Positions 4,014-46,675 are shown, numbered from the stretch's first letter. The stretch is DNA of 64,000 bases from Deltaproteobacteria bacterium (GCA_029262315.1 JAJCZP010000260.1:1980-65979); one strand, 5' to 3'. Notes: generated by a model not told the origin, from the sequence alone. A program made the numbers and translations.

Positions 4014-5237
4014 ATGGACACGACGCTCCCCAGGCTGCGTCCGATCGAGGCGCACCCGGTCGAGACGGATGGCAAGCGACTGATCTACGTGCGCGACCCG
4101 CTGGACTACGCCGCGGGCCCGCTGCTCGTCCCACAAGAGGCCTTCTTCGTGCTCGCGCAGCTCGACGGCGCGCACTCCCTGGCGGATATCCAGAGCGCGT
4201 TCAGCGGGCGCTACGGGCAGACGATTGCCGCCGAGCAGATCGAGACGCTGATCGCGACGCTCGACGGGCACCACTATCTCGAGTCTGACGCTTTCGCGGC
4301 CCGCCGTGCGGAGGTCGACGGCGCCTTCCGGCATGCCGACGAGCGCGCCGCCGCTCACGCCGGATCGAGCTACCCGTGCGAAGCGGCCGAGCTGACCGAG
4401 CGTCTCTCCGACTTCTTCGTCGACTTGCCACCCCTTCGCGCCGATGGCTCGCTCACCGGACTGATCGCCCCCCACATCGATCTTCGCGTCGGCGGACGCA
4501 GCTACGGGCACGCGTATCGCACCCTCCGAGAGACCTCGCACGCCGAACGCTACCTCATTTTCGGCACGTCACATCTCGCGGGAACGAGCCTGTTCGCGGC
4601 GACGCGGAAAGATTTCACGACGCCCCTCGGCACGGCAACGACCGATCGCCCCTTCCTCGACCGACTGGCGCCACGTGCGCCTGGGAACCTGTACGACGAC
4701 GAGATCCTGCATCGGATCGAACACGCGATCGAGTTTCAGGTCGTGATGCTCCAACACGTCCTCGGAACGCGACCGTTCACCATCGTCCCTATCCTGGTCA
4801 CGTCCTTCCACGAGTTCGTCCACGGGCAGCGGTCACCGGCGGACGACGCGCGCGTCACAGGCATGGTCGACGCCGTGCGGACCACCCTGGCCGAGGACGA
4901 CATCCCGACCGCGATCATCGCCGGCGTCGACTTCGCGCACGTCGGCGAGAAGTTTGGCGATCGCGGGGGACTCGATGCCGCGCTGCTCGCCACCACAGAA
5001 GCCAAGGATCGACGCCTGCTCGACGCGCTCACCGCGGCTGACGCCGAGCGGTTCTTCGCGGAGGTTGCCGCCGATTTCGATGCGACTCGGGTCTGCGGCC
5101 TTTCGCCTATGTATACCTTCCTGCGCCTGATCGAGGGTCGGGGCCGCCTCTTGCACTACGATCGGAGCGACGAGCCATCGACCCGATCGGCGGTAAGCTA
5201 CGCCAGCCTCGCGTTCGGGCTCGAGGGTGGATCGTGA
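4014..5237 (+). CDS. Memo-like (AmmeMemoRadiSam system protein B / MEMO1 family) with an extra ~100-aa N-terminal domain
   Basis: Memo signatures: GLIAPHIDLRVGG, YLIFGTSH, GVDFAHVG, VCGLSPM. The ATG at 4014 is preferred over the upstream in-frame junk. Confidence 0.75.
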   Translation: MDTTLPRLRPIEAHPVETDGKRLIYVRDPLDYAAGPLLVPQEAFFVLAQLDGAHSLADIQSAFSGRYGQTIAAEQIETLIATLDGHHYLESDAFAARRAEVDGAFRHADERAAAHAGSSYPCEAAELTERLSDFFVDLPPLRADGSLTGLIAPHIDLRVGGRSYGHAYRTLRETSHAERYLIFGTSHLAGTSLFAATRKDFTTPLGTATTDRPFLDRLAPRAPGNLYDDEILHRIEHAIEFQVVMLQHVLGTRPFTIVPILVTSFHEFVHGQRSPADDARVTGMVDAVRTTLAEDDIPTAIIAGVDFAHVGEKFGDRGGLDAALLATTEAKDRRLLDALTAADAERFFAEVAADFDATRVCGLSPMYTFLRLIEGRGRLLHYDRSDEPSTRSAVSYASLAFGLEGGS

Positions 5238-6278: not shown

Positions 6279-6310
6279 TCTCCCGAGCGGGCTTTCGGTT
6301 GGGGTATTGC

Positions 6311-6401
6311 GCCCGTGGGGCGGAGGCATTGCGTAGCGCCTGCGCCCTGGGCTGAGCGCCCGGTCTGCTCCGGCGCTACGCAACGCCTCCGCCCCACGGG
6401 C
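6311..6401. repeat. 30-bp inverted repeat (1 mismatch) with a 31-nt spacer between convergent genes; a second 7-10-bp hairpin lies at ~6415-6447
   Basis: Arm 1 (6311-6340) is gcccgtggggcggaggcattgcgtagcgcc. Arm 2 (6372-6401) is ggcgctacgcaacgcctccgccccacgggc. Confidence 0.8.
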
Positions 6402-6489
6402 GCGATCGCACGGCGACGCTCGCTCCAGAGGCAAGAGCGTCGCGCCAGGAACGGCGCGCGGTCGGGCGGTGTACTCCGCGTGCGGGGGA

Positions 6490-10395: not shown

Positions 10396-12027
<1,632 letters not shown>

Positions 12028-37705: not shown

Positions 37706-37709
<4 letters not shown>
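36402..37709 (+). CDS. glyQS: Glycine--tRNA ligase (dimeric class II GlyQS)
   Basis: Class II motifs and an anticodon-binding domain. An alternative start lies at 36375. Confidence 0.9.
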
Positions 37710-40741
<3,032 letters not shown>

Positions 40742-42264: not shown

Positions 42265-42688
42265 TTAGGCGCCGCCCTGCTTCCGCCAGGTACGGAGGTC
42301 GAAGTAGTCGCGACACACGCTGATCAGACCGTCGCGAGTTTCGAACACACCGCACACGGGCATCACGATCTTCTTACCGCCTGGGAAGAAATGCGTGTCC
42401 ACACGCTCGACCATGAATGTCGTACCGTGACTCACCATGGTCTCGATCTCGGTCTCGACGCGCCCCCAGCTCGGCCCCAGCTGTCGGAACAGAGCCGCAA
42501 TCGCGGCCTTCCCGGAGGAAAAGGCGATCGTGCTCACGGAAACCGGCGACCATGTCCTGGGGACTCGCCTTAGCCAGCGCGGCCGTGCCCTGCGTACCCG
42601 AACGGCGAGGTAGGCCGATGCACGACAACCGCGAGGTCTCCGATGAAATCGTCGAGACGGCCGAGCGCTTCGAGCCTCCCATCCTCAC
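42265..42688 (-). pseudogene. SnoaL/limonene-1,2-epoxide-hydrolase-like protein, apparently frameshifted
   Basis: The C-terminal half (42265..42537) matches the LEH/SnoaL C-terminus (FMVERVDTHFFPGGKKIVMPVCGVFETRDGLISVCRDYFDL). The N-terminal part is found only in other frames. Confidence 0.4.
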
Positions 42689-42690
42689 GA

Positions 42691-43221
42691 CTATTCGACG
42701 TCCGCTACGGTGGCGGTCCGCGCCGTAGACGCATCGTCGCGGAAGGACGTGGCCAGGAGACGTACGAAGAGGACCGCCGCCGCGAAGAGCATGGCGAGGG
42801 CGGCGGCGAGATAGAAGCCGAGCCCATGCGGAGCAGCATGGCCGAGCGCCGCGATCGTCAAGAGCACGATCGCGATCAAGTGCGTCGCTGTCACCACAAC
42901 TGCAACGATCTTACTGAACTCGGCCGGAACGCCGCGGCGATTCACCCAGACCTGAACGAGAAAGAAGACCATCGGGGCTGGGAGGAACACCACGCTCGCA
43001 ACACGCCAAGGGTCAGGAACCCCTAGGTGGTGCACCACGTAGGGAACGAAACATCCGAACACGACCGCCAGGCTGATCGTCGCACTCACGATCAGTCGGC
43101 CCTGATCCGCGGCAGTCCAGACACCTCGTGCGCGATAGCCGAGACCGGTCACGAGCCCGCCGAACCCCGCGAGCGCGATCGCGACTTCAGCGATGCTCAG
43201 CAAAACGCCGTCGGATTCCAT
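42691..43221 (-). CDS. Hypothetical integral membrane protein (5 TM)
   Basis: 176-aa ORF with hydrophobic helices. No motifs recognised. Confidence 0.5.
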   Translation of the reverse strand: MESDGVLLSIAEVAIALAGFGGLVTGLGYRARGVWTAADQGRLIVSATISLAVVFGCFVPYVVHHLGVPDPWRVASVVFLPAPMVFFLVQVWVNRRGVPAEFSKIVAVVVTATHLIAIVLLTIAALGHAAPHGLGFYLAAALAMLFAAAVLFVRLLATSFRDDASTARTATVADVE

Positions 43222-43494
43222 GATCCCGCCGCTCTCTCAGAGTTGGTCTGGCGCGAATAGCGTACCGAGCCCTGCATCGTTGGTTCGCATGAGGTGAGGC
43301 GTTCGGTACCACGGGGCGACGGAAGATCGCCAACGCGCGCTCTGTCCAGGAGCAATCGATGCAGTCGCCAATGAAAACCGAGCTGTCCGCGTGGGTCGCA
43401 GGGAGAAATCTCACAGAGGCGCGGACGTCGCTGGCGACATCCTGCAAACCCTGGGCCTGAACTCTTGTAGGTACCGTCCCGGACCGTTCATTCC

Positions 43495-43523
43495 TTGACA
43501 TACCCCCACGCCATAGCTATGGT
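43495..43523 (+). promoter_or_regulatory. Sigma-70-like promoter (TTGACA-17 nt-TATGGT) overlapping a 12-bp perfect palindrome (ccatagctatgg), immediately upstream of the transposase ATG
   Basis: Hexamers and spacing read directly. The ATG lies ~13 nt after the -10, with no SD. Confidence 0.35.
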
Positions 43524-43535
43524 CGCCCTTTCAAG

Positions 43536-44234
43536 ATGAAGAAGCAAAAGCAAGCGACCCTGAATCTGCCAGATCAACCGCGCTGGGGCGGGCGACGTGC
43601 CGGGGCCGGCCGGAAGCCCGGCCCGCACCCCCGCCTCGCGCATCGCAGTCGACCGAAGTTCTCCTCGCTCCCCGCGCACGTCACGTTGAAAGTTCGGCCG
43701 GGGATCCCTTCATTGCGCACGCTTCGGATGGTCCGGGAGGTCGAGCAGTCGTTCGCGCGCGGATGTTCGCGACCAGGCTTTCGGTTGGTGCACTACTCGC
43801 TGCAGAGCAACCACGTACATCTGATCGTCGAGGCGTCGACCCGTGACGCTCTCGGCCGTGGGATGATGGCCATCGCCGGACGTCTGGGGCGCACCGTCAA
43901 TCGAGTGTGCGAGCGATCTGGCAGGGTGTTAGCGGATCGCTACCACCTCCGCGTCCTGAAAACGCCCCGCGAGGTCCATGCGGCGCTGCGCTACGTACTC
44001 CTGAACGCTCGTCGCCATGCGACACGCCTCACCCGTCGCGCCAAGAGCCCACGACTCGATCCGGCCTCATCGGCTCGGTGGTTTGATGGTTGGCGTGCGA
44101 GAACCCGTCGGTGGATGGTGGTGGACGCCCCCGGCGCGGATGAAACTCCACCGATCGCGCGCGCTCGAACATGGCTCCTGAAAACGGGTTGGCGCCGCTA
44201 CGGCCTCTTCGATCCGGCGGACGTGCCGGGCTGA
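43536..44234 (+). mobile_element. REP-associated tyrosine transposase (RAYT) / IS200-like Y1 HUH transposase CDS
   Basis: HUH motif HVHLIV and catalytic-Tyr region RYVLLN. The N-terminal GRKPGPHPRLAHRSRPKF region is typical of RAYTs. Confidence 0.75.
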
Positions 44235-44257
44235 CGCCAACACGAGGAGCTACCCCA

Positions 44258-44720
44258 ACGCGGCGGCGGCGGCGCGGAATGGGACGGCTCGGGCGGGAGC
44301 GCAAGGCCTCCTTCCTCCTTGACCACACGATGCTGAGATCAAGAGCGGGTGGCGAAGGGGCGAGGACGCCACCGGGTAGCACGGCCGACGCGGCGGCGGG
44401 AAACGGGACGGCTCGGGCGGGAGCGCAGGCCTCCTTCCCTCTTAACCACACGCTTCTGAAATCAAGAGCGGGCGGTTGAGGGGAGTGGCAGCCACCGGGT
44501 AGCACGACCGGCGCGGCGGTGGGGGAACGGGACGGCTCGGGTTGCAGCGCGGGCATCCTCCCCTTAACGACACGCTTCTGAGATCAAGAGCGGGTGGCGA
44601 AGGGGCGCGGAAGCCACCGGGTAGCACGGGCAGCGGGTGCGCGGAATGGACAGGCCGGGCGGGAGCGCAGGCCTCCTTCCTCCTTAACCACCAGCTTCTG
44701 AAACCAAGAGCGCGGAGCGG
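44258..44720. repeat. Tandem array of ~3.7 copies of a ~122-bp repeat (REP/BIME-like), immediately downstream of the RAYT gene
   Basis: Units start at ~44258, 44389, 44511 and 44633. They share the cores gggacggctcgggcgggagcgcaggcctccttcctccttaaccac ... cttctgagatcaagagcgggtggcgaagggg ... gccaccgggtagcacg. Confidence 0.8.
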
Positions 44721-44980
44721 ATGCGATCGGGCACTCGGCGAGCTCCGGGGTGCTTCGCCATGGCTTCGCCTCGGGACGAACGCGGGTTCGTACCTGGGCT
44801 CGCCTCATTCATCCAATTCGCCAAGCGTGCCGATATGCTTCCTGGGAGGTTTCTCGGTGTGCGGGCCTGTGAAGTGCGTGGACAGATCGTGTGCGAGATG
44901 CGGTGCTCGTATCCGTTGTGGGACGGGGTGCGTGATCCGTACGATCGTGGCTGGATGGAGCACGCGCGGTAGCGACAACC

Positions 44981-46675
44981 ATGTCTAGACTTGGAGATCT
45001 TCTCGTCCGCCGAGGCGAGATCGAGGAAGCGCAGCTGGAGCGGGCGCTCGGTGAGCAGCGGACCAACGGGGGCGCGCTTGCGAGCCACCTGGTCAAGCTG
45101 GGACTGATCGCGGAGGACGCACTCCTTTCGTACCTGCAGAAGGAGTACCGGCTGCCGGTCGTCGACCCTTCGAGCCTCGAGATCGAGCCCGAGGTATTGG
45201 CGCTCATTCCAACGCAGATGGCGCACAAGCACCACATGATCCCGGTCAATCTGGTGCGCTCGACCTTGACGATGGCGATGGCGGATCCATCGAACCTGAT
45301 CGCGATCAACGAAGTCAAGTTCCTCACGAGCTACGACGTCAAGATCGCCGTCGCGGGCGCGACGGCGGTTCAACGTGCGATCGACCGCTACTACGACGCC
45401 GGCTCGAGCTACGACGACGTCTTGAACGAGATCGACGGCGGCGACGACGTCCAGCTCGTGCAGAGCGAGGAGGAAGTCAACCTCCAGGAGCTCGAACGCG
45501 CCACCGAGGAGGCGCCTGTCGTCCGCCTCGTGAACGCCCTCATGATGGACGCGATCAAGAAACGGGCGAGTGACATCCACGTCGAGCCCTACGAGAAGAT
45601 CCTCCGCATCCGTTTCCGGATCGATGGCGTATTGCACGAAGTGATGCAGCCACCGATCAAGCTGAAGAACGCGATCACCTCGCGTATCAAGGTCATGGCC
45701 CAGCTCGACATTGCCGAGCGTCGGATGCCGCAGGACGGCCGCATAAAACTGAAGATGACGCGCAACCGCGAGATGGACTTCCGCGTCTCGGTCCTTCCCA
45801 CCATATTTGGCGAGAAGGTGGTGCTCCGCCTCCTCGACAAGTCGAATCTTCAGCTCGACATGACGAAGCTCGGTTTCAGCGAACGTGCCCTCGCCGACTT
45901 CAAGGACGCAATCTACAAACCGTTCGGCATGGTGCTGGTCACCGGCCCGACGGGCAGCGGCAAAACGACCTCGCTCTACTCGGCCCTCTCCGAGCTCAAC
46001 AAGGTGACGTCGAACATCTCGACCGCGGAGGATCCTGTCGAGTTCAACCTCATGGGCATCAACCAAGTACAGGTGCACGAGGAGATCGGCTTGTCGTTCG
46101 CGGCGACGCTGCGATCCTTTCTACGGCAGGATCCGGACATCATCATGGTCGGTGAGATCCGCGACTTCGAAACGGCCGAGATCGGCGTCAAGTCCGCCCT
46201 CACGGGGCACCTCGTGCTCTCGACCCTGCACACCAACGACGCCCCCTCCACCATCAACCGACTCCTGAACATGGGCATCGAACCCTTCCTGGTCGCGTCC
46301 TCCATCAATCTCATCATGGCGCAACGCCTCGTGCGCGTGCTCTGCCCAGGATGCCTTGAAGAAACCGAGATCACGCCCGAGGCGTTGGTCGCCATCGGCA
46401 CGCCGCCCGAAATGGCAGAGACCATGCGCTGCTACCAGGGGGCCGGCTGCTCGTCGTGCAGCGGCACAGGCTACAAAGGTCGCATCGCACTCTACGAGGT
46501 CATGCCGATGACCGACGGCCTGCGCGAGGTCATCCTCGCAGGCGGCTCCAACAGCGAGATCAAGCGTGCGGCCATCGACGCCGGCATGGACTCCCTTCGC
46601 CGAAGCGGCATCGACAAGATCGCCGAGGGCGTCACATCAATTGATGAAGTCCTGCGGATCACCATGCCCGACTGA
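44981..46675 (+). CDS. pilB: Type IV pilus assembly ATPase PilB
   Basis: GSPII N-terminal domain. Walker A GPTGSGKTT. Tetracysteine CPGC ... CSSC. Confidence 0.9.
   Translation: MSRLGDLLVRRGEIEEAQLERALGEQRTNGGALASHLVKLGLIAEDALLSYLQKEYRLPVVDPSSLEIEPEVLALIPTQMAHKHHMIPVNLVRSTLTMAMADPSNLIAINEVKFLTSYDVKIAVAGATAVQRAIDRYYDAGSSYDDVLNEIDGGDDVQLVQSEEEVNLQELERATEEAPVVRLVNALMMDAIKKRASDIHVEPYEKILRIRFRIDGVLHEVMQPPIKLKNAITSRIKVMAQLDIAERRMPQDGRIKLKMTRNREMDFRVSVLPTIFGEKVVLRLLDKSNLQLDMTKLGFSERALADFKDAIYKPFGMVLVTGPTGSGKTTSLYSALSELNKVTSNISTAEDPVEFNLMGINQVQVHEEIGLSFAATLRSFLRQDPDIIMVGEIRDFETAEIGVKSALTGHLVLSTLHTNDAPSTINRLLNMGIEPFLVASSINLIMAQRLVRVLCPGCLEETEITPEALVAIGTPPEMAETMRCYQGAGCSSCSGTGYKGRIALYEVMPMTDGLREVILAGGSNSEIKRAAIDAGMDSLRRSGIDKIAEGVTSIDEVLRITMPD

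Follow-up and report, generated by a model that had tools for sequence, protein, structure and literature searches.

The tandem repeat array described here lies in a 64,000-nt stretch of DNA from Deltaproteobacteria bacterium (GCA_029262315.1 JAJCZP010000260.1:1980-65979; hereafter the window, with a G+C content of 65.5%, all positions being those of its plus strand). It is located within a 750-bp intergenic region upstream of pilB and follows a plus-strand gene (43536-44234) for a 232-aa Y1 HUH transposase that resembles the repetitive extragenic palindrome (REP)-associated tyrosine transposases (RAYTs). The open reading frame (ORF) of this gene ends 24 nt upstream of the array. In our own alignment the array extends from 44258 to 44729 and comprises four direct units of 118-124 bp, all on the plus strand: the gene-proximal unit 1 (44258-44384), unit 2 (44385-44508), unit 3 (44509-44630) and, at the pilB-proximal edge, a truncated and degenerate unit 4 (44631 to ~44729). 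The first three were delimited by Tandem Repeats Finder (TRF), unit alignment and blastn, and the fourth by unit alignment and blastn. TRF reports a single array at 44266-44712 (period 123, 3.7 copies, 79% matches, score 566), by far the top-scoring tandem repeat of the window, which confirms the ~122-bp, 3.7-copy array proposed in an earlier reading made from the sequence alone (the sequence-only reading).

The distances between successive unit starts are 123, 122-124 and 118 bp. Pairwise blastn identities among units 1-3 are 84.7%, 84.0% and 82.9% over 118-125 nt (E 1e-30 to 1e-33); the repeat itself is therefore real, but the 85-90% identity first attributed to it was slightly too high. Unit 4 aligns with the others at 75-88% over 65-86 nt only. 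Because the alignments cover the entire unit, there are no unique spacers, as the sequence-only reading had said. Its statement that three motifs recur in every unit needs correction, since the first is degraded in unit 3 and gccaccgggtagcacg is missing from the truncated unit 4. The units differ by 15-20%, so assembly collapse is an unlikely origin of the array, and an orthologous array is present at the same locus in a relative (loci L018 and L019).

The protein encoded upstream of the array scores 23.1 bits against a cut-off of 23 with the Pfam model Y1_Tnp, 32.8 bits against a cut-off of 80 with the NCBIfam model for REP-associated tyrosine transposases (REP_Tyr_transpos, NF047646) and 17.7 bits against a cut-off of 55 with the NCBIfam IS200 model. 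The protein collection contains 6314 homologues, several of which are labelled 'REP element-mobilizing transposase RayT' by the Joint Genome Institute (JGI). In an alignment of 14 homologues, H93-V-H95 (the HxH motif) and Y153-V-L-L-N157 (YxxxN) are invariant, as are an N-terminal WGGRRxGAGRKP and a C-terminal block LDPASSARWFDGW...ARTWLL..GWRRHGLLDP.DVPG. The core of the AlphaFold2 (AF2) model, residues 45-168, has a beta-alpha-beta-beta-alpha-beta-alpha fold with a predicted local distance difference test (pLDDT) score of 70-83. All the best Foldseek matches of this model in the PDB are Y1 HUH proteins, namely ISDra2 TnpA (2xm3), Escherichia coli TnpA_REP bound to a REP hairpin (4er8), IS200 and IS608; the PDB entries matched include 2f4f and 2vju. 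Sequence searches of the PDB with the single protein and with a 14-sequence profile gave no match, and exact look-ups of the RAYT-like protein, PilB and PilT of the window returned no identical record. The gene had been called a RAYT outright. The fold and the catalytic motifs are those of a Y1 HUH transposase, but the score lies below the curated RAYT threshold, so that the label 'RAYT-like' is justified and 'RAYT' in the curated sense is not.

A promoter-like site followed by a short leader, TTGACA-17 nt-TATGGT and then CGCCCTTTCAAG and ATG, precedes the gene at 43495-43535 on the plus strand. It is the sole sigma-70-like match of a promoter scan in 43200-45200, and the block TTGAC[AT]-N17-TA.AAGGTAGCCCTTTCAAGATG is kept upstream of all ten family members inspected, including paralogues of 62-70% identity. 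With its invariant HUH and tyrosine residues, its modelled Y1 fold and its own conserved promoter and leader, the RAYT-like enzyme looks functional. The block with its very short leader, TTGAC[AT]-N17-TA.AAGGTAGCC(C)TTTCAAGATG, is found in the window and at L018, L021, L025, L027, L028, L029, L032, L033 and L034. The leader contains GTAGC and TCAAGA, both of which are words of the array core (TCAAGAGCGGGTAGCG), in reversed order; a role of this block in autoregulation is possible.

Each ~120-bp unit carries one imperfect palindrome of 46 nt, CCCCTTAACCACCCGCTCTT-CAGATC-AAGAGCGGGTAGCGAAGGGG, which is extragenic and longer than the usual REP of 20-40 nt. The consensus of 30 aligned cores is CCCCTTAACC-ACCCGCTCTT-CAGATC-AAGAGCGGGT-AGCGAAGGGG, in which an inner stem of 10 bp (ACCCGCTCTT/AAGAGCGGGT) closes a GATC-containing loop of 6 nt and is joined through a small internal loop to an outer CCCCTT/AAGGGG stem. 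The other ~75 nt of each unit are lineage-specific, and in some lineages include a second hairpin unrelated to the core. In the window, a hidden Markov model (HMM) of the core finds plus-strand copies at 44314-44364 in unit 1 (CCTCCTTGACCACACGATGCTGAGATCAAGAGCGGGTGGCGAAGGGG, E = 2e-13), 44437-44487 in unit 2 (E = 4e-13) and 44559-44609 in unit 3 (E = 6e-16), and a remnant that has lost the right arm at 44679-44729 in unit 4 (E = 4e-10). Two features singled out in the sequence-only reading belong to this structure: the 'partially palindromic cttctgagatcaagag' is indeed the loop with the inner arms of the palindrome, while the label 'anti-SD-like CCTCCTT' (SD, Shine-Dalgarno) does not hold, these nucleotides being the left, C-rich foot that pairs with AAGGGG in the G-rich tail of the palindrome. 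The palindrome is real, because over the 30 cores 81% of the cells expected to pair do so, compared with 43-60% in slid controls. The single-stranded DNA hairpins of the L018 and L021 cores are strong (-13.5 to -15.4 kcal/mol, z = -4.2 to -4.9), intact examples being L018 11640-11690 and L021 8462-8512, and the whole units of these two loci have fold z values of -2.7 to -3.8.

The right arm and tail of the core, ATCAAGAGCGGGT[A/G]GCGAAGGGG, are almost invariant over the 30 cores. These 24 nt are nearly unchanged across paralogues whose proteins are 73-80% identical and in which the remainder of the unit has diverged beyond recognition. Together with the uncompensated drift of the left arm, this near-invariance points to a sequence-specific recognition of the right arm and not to selection for pairing as such. 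The cores of one array all have the same orientation, with a spacing of 108-132 bp.

Core arrays accompany this gene family closely. At least seven other loci with relatives 67-90% identical to the RAYT-like protein, set in unrelated gene neighbourhoods, carry tandem units of 108-132 bp beside the gene. In L018 and L019 (protein P0002, 90% identical) the array lies between the gene and pilB as in the window, with a period of 123 bp, 4.1 and 3.1 copies and 91% identity. In L021 (P0003, an 81% homologue next to ruvCAB and DUF8575) 3.8 copies of 118 bp lie upstream of the gene and 9.5 copies of 119 bp downstream; the orthologous locus L022/L032 has 3.0 copies of 113 bp upstream and 2.5 copies of 112 bp downstream. 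L034 (argB/argD) has 4.8 copies of 130 bp upstream and 2.4 copies of 132 bp downstream. Arrays downstream of the gene are found in L025 (113 bp, 3.2 copies), in L026 (112 bp, 4.3 copies) and in L029 (recA/cinA; 108 bp, 2.9 copies), where the core is diverged and half-cores occur on both sides. Upstream of the paralogue P0010 in L033 (2777-3037) there are 3.0 copies of an 86-bp unit that contains CGAGCGGGTTCGC and in which the core HMM finds no related core. L027, which holds a 62% paralogue in a 7.0-Mb genome, has no array; 33-nt inverted repeats flank the gene. Paralogues share contigs in two cases (L026 with L033, P0008 with P0013), and therefore one genome carries at least seven diverged copies.

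One of the eight core-bearing array loci lacks a RAYT-like gene in the available sequence. This orphan array (L024, 575-849; 113 bp, 2.4 copies) has a cupin-like ORF on one side and a polyprenyl synthetase gene on the other, and the 3.6 kb of sequence available there contain no RAYT-like gene. Its identity with the array of L025, on the same contig, is 87%, which is consistent with dissemination. An unbiased scan of the metagenome collection with 21 nt of the right arm gave five loci, each from the single sample that also yielded L018, and in four of the five a RAYT-like gene 76-90% identical to that of the window lies within a few hundred bp. In the species-representative genome collection, where the source genome is absent, the 19-nt pattern GCTTCTGARAYCAAGAGCG gave 17 single matches in unrelated phyla, the number expected by chance, none of which continues past the pattern itself. 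Over 129 kb of window and loci, the unfiltered core HMM gave significant matches only inside arrays.

The palindromic repeats lie only downstream of the gene in the window and in L018, and on both flanks in L021, L032 and L034. In L021 and L032 the two flanking arrays are mutually inverted over the whole unit (70-80% identity). A universal rule of inverted flanks was rejected, since the L034 flanks are direct; the inverted arrangement is frequent, not a rule.

We consider it fairly probable that the array serves the adjacent RAYT-like Y1 HUH gene as its cis-element, the two being arranged as in a REPtron. The proposal in the sequence-only reading that REP-like elements are tied to a neighbouring RAYT is strongly supported by core arrays beside most sampled homologues in unrelated contexts, and the core of the unit does recur at other loci, though not as dispersed copies within the 64 kb. 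In the mechanism that we propose, the palindrome would first be extruded as a hairpin on single-stranded DNA. The neighbouring enzyme would then bind the hairpin through the conserved right arm and tail, recognition being expected to depend on ATCAAGAGCGGGTRGCGAAGGGG. Cleavage and rejoining by the enzyme, aided by slippage or unequal recombination, would multiply the module into local tandem arrays, and occasionally seed an array elsewhere. In the window, the downstream array alone would have survived, with its left arms decayed, and it probably represents an old remnant of little or no activity that has been homogenised by recombination. The repeat, the common core, its close link with this gene family, the intact catalytic motifs and the fold are observations, whereas binding, cleavage and amplification by the enzyme are inferred.

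The closest known counterpart is the REPtron, a RAYT or TnpA_REP gene flanked by REPs or bacterial interspersed mosaic elements (BIMEs), as for E. coli yafM and in Stenotrophomonas and Marinomonas (PMC3333891, PMC8266576). The E. coli enzyme binds and cleaves single-stranded REPs through the hairpin and a 5' GTAG (PMC3333891, PMC3479197, PMC8266576). The window family likewise consists of a Y1 HUH gene with clustered imperfect-palindromic repeats alongside, the gene has been passed on vertically and keeps its locus in related genomes, the flanks are inverted at one locus and its orthologue (L021, L032) as well as in the 33-nt repeats of L027, and the Marinomonas REPs are similarly concentrated near tnpA_REP genes (PMC8266576). 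It differs in having head-to-tail modules of ~110-130 bp instead of REPs of 20-40 nt in alternating orientation, in showing no genome-wide dispersal in the available sequence, in placing GT[A/G]G at the 3' foot inside the stem, in having several old paralogues with one common core rather than one REP type per RAYT, and in a protein below the curated RAYT threshold. In Pseudomonas fluorescens SBW25, tandem clusters of REPINs (REP doublets forming hairpins) lie beside each of three RAYTs (Bertels and Rainey 2011, PMC3116915). These clusters too are ordered tandem repeats of palindrome and flanking sequence, and their formation was put down to a second, local mechanism; the SBW25 element, however, is a REPIN doublet present in hundreds of copies genome-wide, whereas ours is a single palindrome for which no dispersed copies were found.

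Dispersed REP families are absent from some species that do have REPtrons, and inverted repeats with the motif GGGGWSAS flank certain RAYT-like genes, the TIRYTs (PMC3733652). The TIRYT/TIRtron corresponds to TnpAY1 subclass 2.1 or Bertels group 1, and some of its terminal inverted repeats (TIRs) are self-complementary and clustered (PMC3733652, PMC6006769). Subclass 2.1 is described by ~238 aa, NHVH, a C-terminal tail with an SS motif, Y[IV]xLNP and 'no REP' (PMC6006769 Table 1). The protein of the window resembles it in length (232 aa against ~230-240), NHVH and the SS motif (LDPASSARWF), and G-rich GGGG... words are present in the flanking inverted repeats, with plain 33-nt inverted repeats in L027. 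The core tails GGGGAGCG, GGGGAGTG or GGGGCGAG match GGGGWSAS at 6-7 of 8 positions, which is an approximate match only, and the L027 repeats lack the motif. Unlike subclass 2.1, the window protein has the tyrosine motif YVLLNA in place of Y[IV]xLNP, and the likeness is one of motif inspection, not of a tree; moreover, the subclass was reported without REP-like structures, whereas here a palindromic core is organised in long tandem arrays.

With the IS200/IS605 insertion sequences, the family shares the Y1 HUH fold of its best structural matches and subterminal hairpins, and the same-strand flanking repeats of L034 resemble left and right ends. Those elements have a short TnpA (~150 aa, Y---Q), near-identical copies and often tnpB, while the present protein has 232 aa with long N- and C-terminal extensions, a tyrosine motif other than Y---Q and paralogues 67-80% identical. 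No tnpB was found in any of the array and paralogue loci examined; with these features and the low IS200 score, membership in IS200/IS605 was rejected. Further assignments of the repeat were set aside. A BIME-type array, suggested in the sequence-only reading, is not borne out, since the cores of each array point one way at a spacing of 108-132 bp and do not alternate with short linkers. The element is not a REPIN, as there is one palindrome per unit and the second hairpins are lineage-specific and unrelated to it. It is not a dispersed high-copy REP, with no extra copy in the window or in ~65 kb of relatives, and the full-length matches between units do not fit a CRISPR array.

Several observations weigh against the partnership of array and enzyme. 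Unlike classical REPs, the element shows no dispersal: blastn (word size 7) and the unfiltered HMM found no copy outside the array in the 64-kb window, and the unfiltered core HMM found none outside arrays in the ~65 kb of related loci. Repeat search, blastn and HMM gave no inverted unit copy 5' of the window gene, and in the window, L018 and L025 the array is on one side only (3'). At L034, the flanking arrays are direct and 76-79% identical over 300 nt. The fold prediction that had been suggested as a check is favourable for the core palindrome, with the strong hairpins of L018 and L021, and unfavourable for the window, in which whole units and the whole array have z values near 0 and the four cores fold weakly: -7.0 kcal/mol (z = -0.6), -9.6 kcal/mol (z = -2.2) and -10.1 kcal/mol (z = -1.7) for units 1-3, and -3.8 kcal/mol (z = +0.7) for unit 4, where no hairpin is predicted. 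The weakness arises because the left arm is mutated, with CACGCTTCT in place of CCCGCTCTT. Whole units of L025, L026, L029 and L034 fold weakly too. Covariation is absent over the 30 cores, all five measures being at or below the shuffled means, and changes in the drifting left arm are not matched by any in the conserved right arm, so that the cores do not demonstrate selection for pairing. On both strands, GT[A/G]G (GTAG or GTGG) occupies the 3' end of the inner stem and takes part in the pairing of the extended palindrome, whereas in canonical REPs it is 5' of the hairpin. Finally, the protein falls below the curated RAYT threshold and its tyrosine motif YVLLNA is not the class-2 Y---NP (PMC6006769).

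Comparison with L018 shows how the array has changed. Nucleotide identity between the two loci is 85-86% in the flanking genes, 78% in the RAYT-like region and 66-70% between the arrays, while units within an array are 83-85% identical in the window and 91% in L018. The core of unit 1 is orthologous to the solitary gene-proximal core of L018 (10772-10822), with the blastn block from the gene running through it, and the counterpart of unit 4 is the last unit of the L018 array, which is just as degenerate; judging from this alignment, unit 4 is an old edge unit common to both lineages. Since the edge units are orthologous and the interiors divergent, the array is ancestral to the window and L018 and has undergone internal turnover since (concerted evolution). 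The arrays of L018 (11401-11906) and L019 (11401-11783) differ by exactly one 123-bp unit, although the two contigs agree completely over 19.9 kb of flanking sequence; in a third assembly, L020, the contig is broken within the array. Copy-number polymorphism is one reading of this difference, which is not counted as evidence here, as flanks that are 100% identical, perhaps from the same sample, would also fit a short-read assembly collapse. Between the gene-proximal core and the rest of the L018 array there is a minus-strand ORF (10859-11293) for 144 hydrophobic residues without a Pfam match. It is present in L018, L019 and L020 and absent from the window, reflecting either an insertion into the array or a deletion in the window.

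This history bears on a reading in which the arrays are passive satellites: a terminator-like palindrome 3' of the gene would have been amplified by replication slippage or unequal recombination alone, and the arrays inherited or moved with the gene, the enzyme not acting. Concerted evolution and old edge units are typical of recombination-driven arrays, the missing covariation, the eroding left arms and the weak hairpins of several arrays, including that of the window, fit equally well, and the period varies by locus (86, 108, 112-113, 118-119, 123 and 130-132 bp). We nevertheless think such a purely passive origin rather unlikely. It does not account for the 24 nt of right arm and tail that stay nearly constant while the rest of the unit diverges, for arrays on the 5' side of the gene (L021, L032, L034), where a role as terminator makes no sense, or for an orphan copy at a distinct site (L024).

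Some insertion sequences target REPs, and a mobile RAYT-like cassette might similarly have inserted preferentially into arrays or palindromes that existed before it, which would explain genes between direct arrays. The L034 gene looks as if it had been inserted into one array, the L024 array exists without a gene, and an unrelated ORF of 144 aa is also found inside the L018 array. Yet the L024 array is the only one of the eight without a gene in the available sequence, array-only intergenic regions are otherwise lacking in ~130 kb, and recent insertion is not evident, given the age of the paralogues (67-80% aa identity) and the retention of orthologous positions between genomes (window and L018; L021 and L032). 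That the arrays are targets rather than products of the gene seems improbable on the present sequences.

Very unlikely is the idea, raised as an alternative in the sequence-only reading, of tandem genes for small structured RNAs (sRNAs) or of a cis-regulatory RNA acting, for example, on pilB or through CCUCCU as an anti-Shine-Dalgarno element. The position of the array upstream of pilB and the hairpins and C-rich motif of the units would suit it. However, Rfam searches at the gathering threshold and at E = 10 gave only chance-level matches to microRNAs and long non-coding RNAs, the fold z of the array is -0.02 on the plus strand and -1.03 on the minus strand, the scan found no promoter or terminator inside the array, the cores do not covary, the C-rich motif pairs with the G-rich tail, and copies of the element lie at other loci that have nothing to do with pilB, in one or the other orientation to the neighbouring genes. 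The array was accordingly not assigned to a known RNA family or to tandem sRNA genes. A repetitive protein or a degenerate CRISPR array can be practically dismissed: although ORFs of 102-175 aa overlap the array on both strands, none has a Pfam match and the 1- and 2-nt indels between units, with periods of 118 and 122-124 bp, break any reading frame, so that the array is non-coding, and units that abut without unique spacers uphold the earlier statement that this is not CRISPR.

The array is followed by pilB (44981-46675; TIGR02538, 774 bits), pilT and pilC. The best named relatives of PilB come from 'Candidatus Binatia bacterium' and 'Deltaproteobacteria bacterium' metagenome-assembled genomes, and the organism of the window is therefore probably a member of Binatia. 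The closest relative has a PilB (P0136) that is 98% identical. The window, L018 and L019 have a common gene order of pyruvate phosphate dikinase, aroE, a SnoaL-like gene, a membrane ORF, the RAYT-like gene, pilB-pilT-pilC, a pilS/pilR-like regulator and a prepilin (N_methyl) gene. In two PilB homologues, P0196 and P0226 (750 and 838 aa), shikimate dehydrogenase domains stand in front of PilB. This hints that aroE abuts pilB elsewhere and that the block from the SnoaL-like gene through the membrane ORF and the RAYT-like gene to the array (~42265-44730) is a lineage-specific insertion.

Directly upstream of pilB, a non-coding stretch of ~215 nt (44765-44980; L018 11975-12199) is ~95% identical between the window and L018, compared with 85-86% for the flanking genes. 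It starts with the hairpin GACGAACGCGGGTTCGTAC, has no Rfam match and an RNA fold z of +0.87, and is overlapped by an 83-aa ORF (44721-44972) without a Pfam match; it may be a conserved promoter, operator or leader of pilB. The hairpins of the array, between the end of the RAYT-like gene and pilB, may, speculatively, act incidentally as a 3'-end stabiliser or terminator.

Two further features of the window lie apart from the array. The segment 37706-38040 is the N-terminus of the pyruvate phosphate dikinase ORF (37706-40741; L018 counterpart 4470-4802), and the tail of the dikinase is Lys/Ala/Thr/Arg-rich, histone-H1-like and encoded by 9-, 15- and 48-bp tandem repeats, with 3.9 copies of 54 bp in the relative. 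At 6308-6404, 97 nt form a nearly perfect hairpin whose 40-nt arms, 90% complementary, are separated by a 21-nt spacer; the hairpin contains GCGTAGCGCC. It folds as single-stranded DNA with -56 kcal/mol (z = -8.1) and has a REPIN-like shape; it is single-copy in the sequence examined, where no family was found.

RAYTs and their REPs are the best-studied case of a domesticated transposase replicating small non-coding elements in bacterial genomes. We know of no description of such elements from this uncultured phylum. The array and its gene are probably a local array-forming variant of the known REP/RAYT partnership in uncultured Binatia-type bacteria, of which the window holds a one-sided and eroded copy. 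The repeat of the window would then be a mobile-element relic, neither a new RNA gene nor a regulatory array for pilB. A bolder and doubtful view is that Binatia-type bacteria have a distinct array-forming branch of Y1 HUH/RAYT enzymes, in which ancient paralogues of a TIRYT- or subclass-2.1-like gene each keep private palindrome arrays of ~110-130 bp instead of dispersed REPs. If that is so, the enzyme would carry out a local 'copy next door' reaction, or the arrays would have a host role such as structural or transcriptional insulation, and a subclass reported without a cis-element would gain the missing one. The family may also give a cis-element to a RAYT-like subclass reported as REP-less. 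With the same enzyme and core throughout, it forms a natural series of strong hairpins (L018, L021), eroded hairpins (the window), inverted flanks, direct flanks and an orphan array, and this series could help to separate enzyme-driven from recombination-driven amplification.

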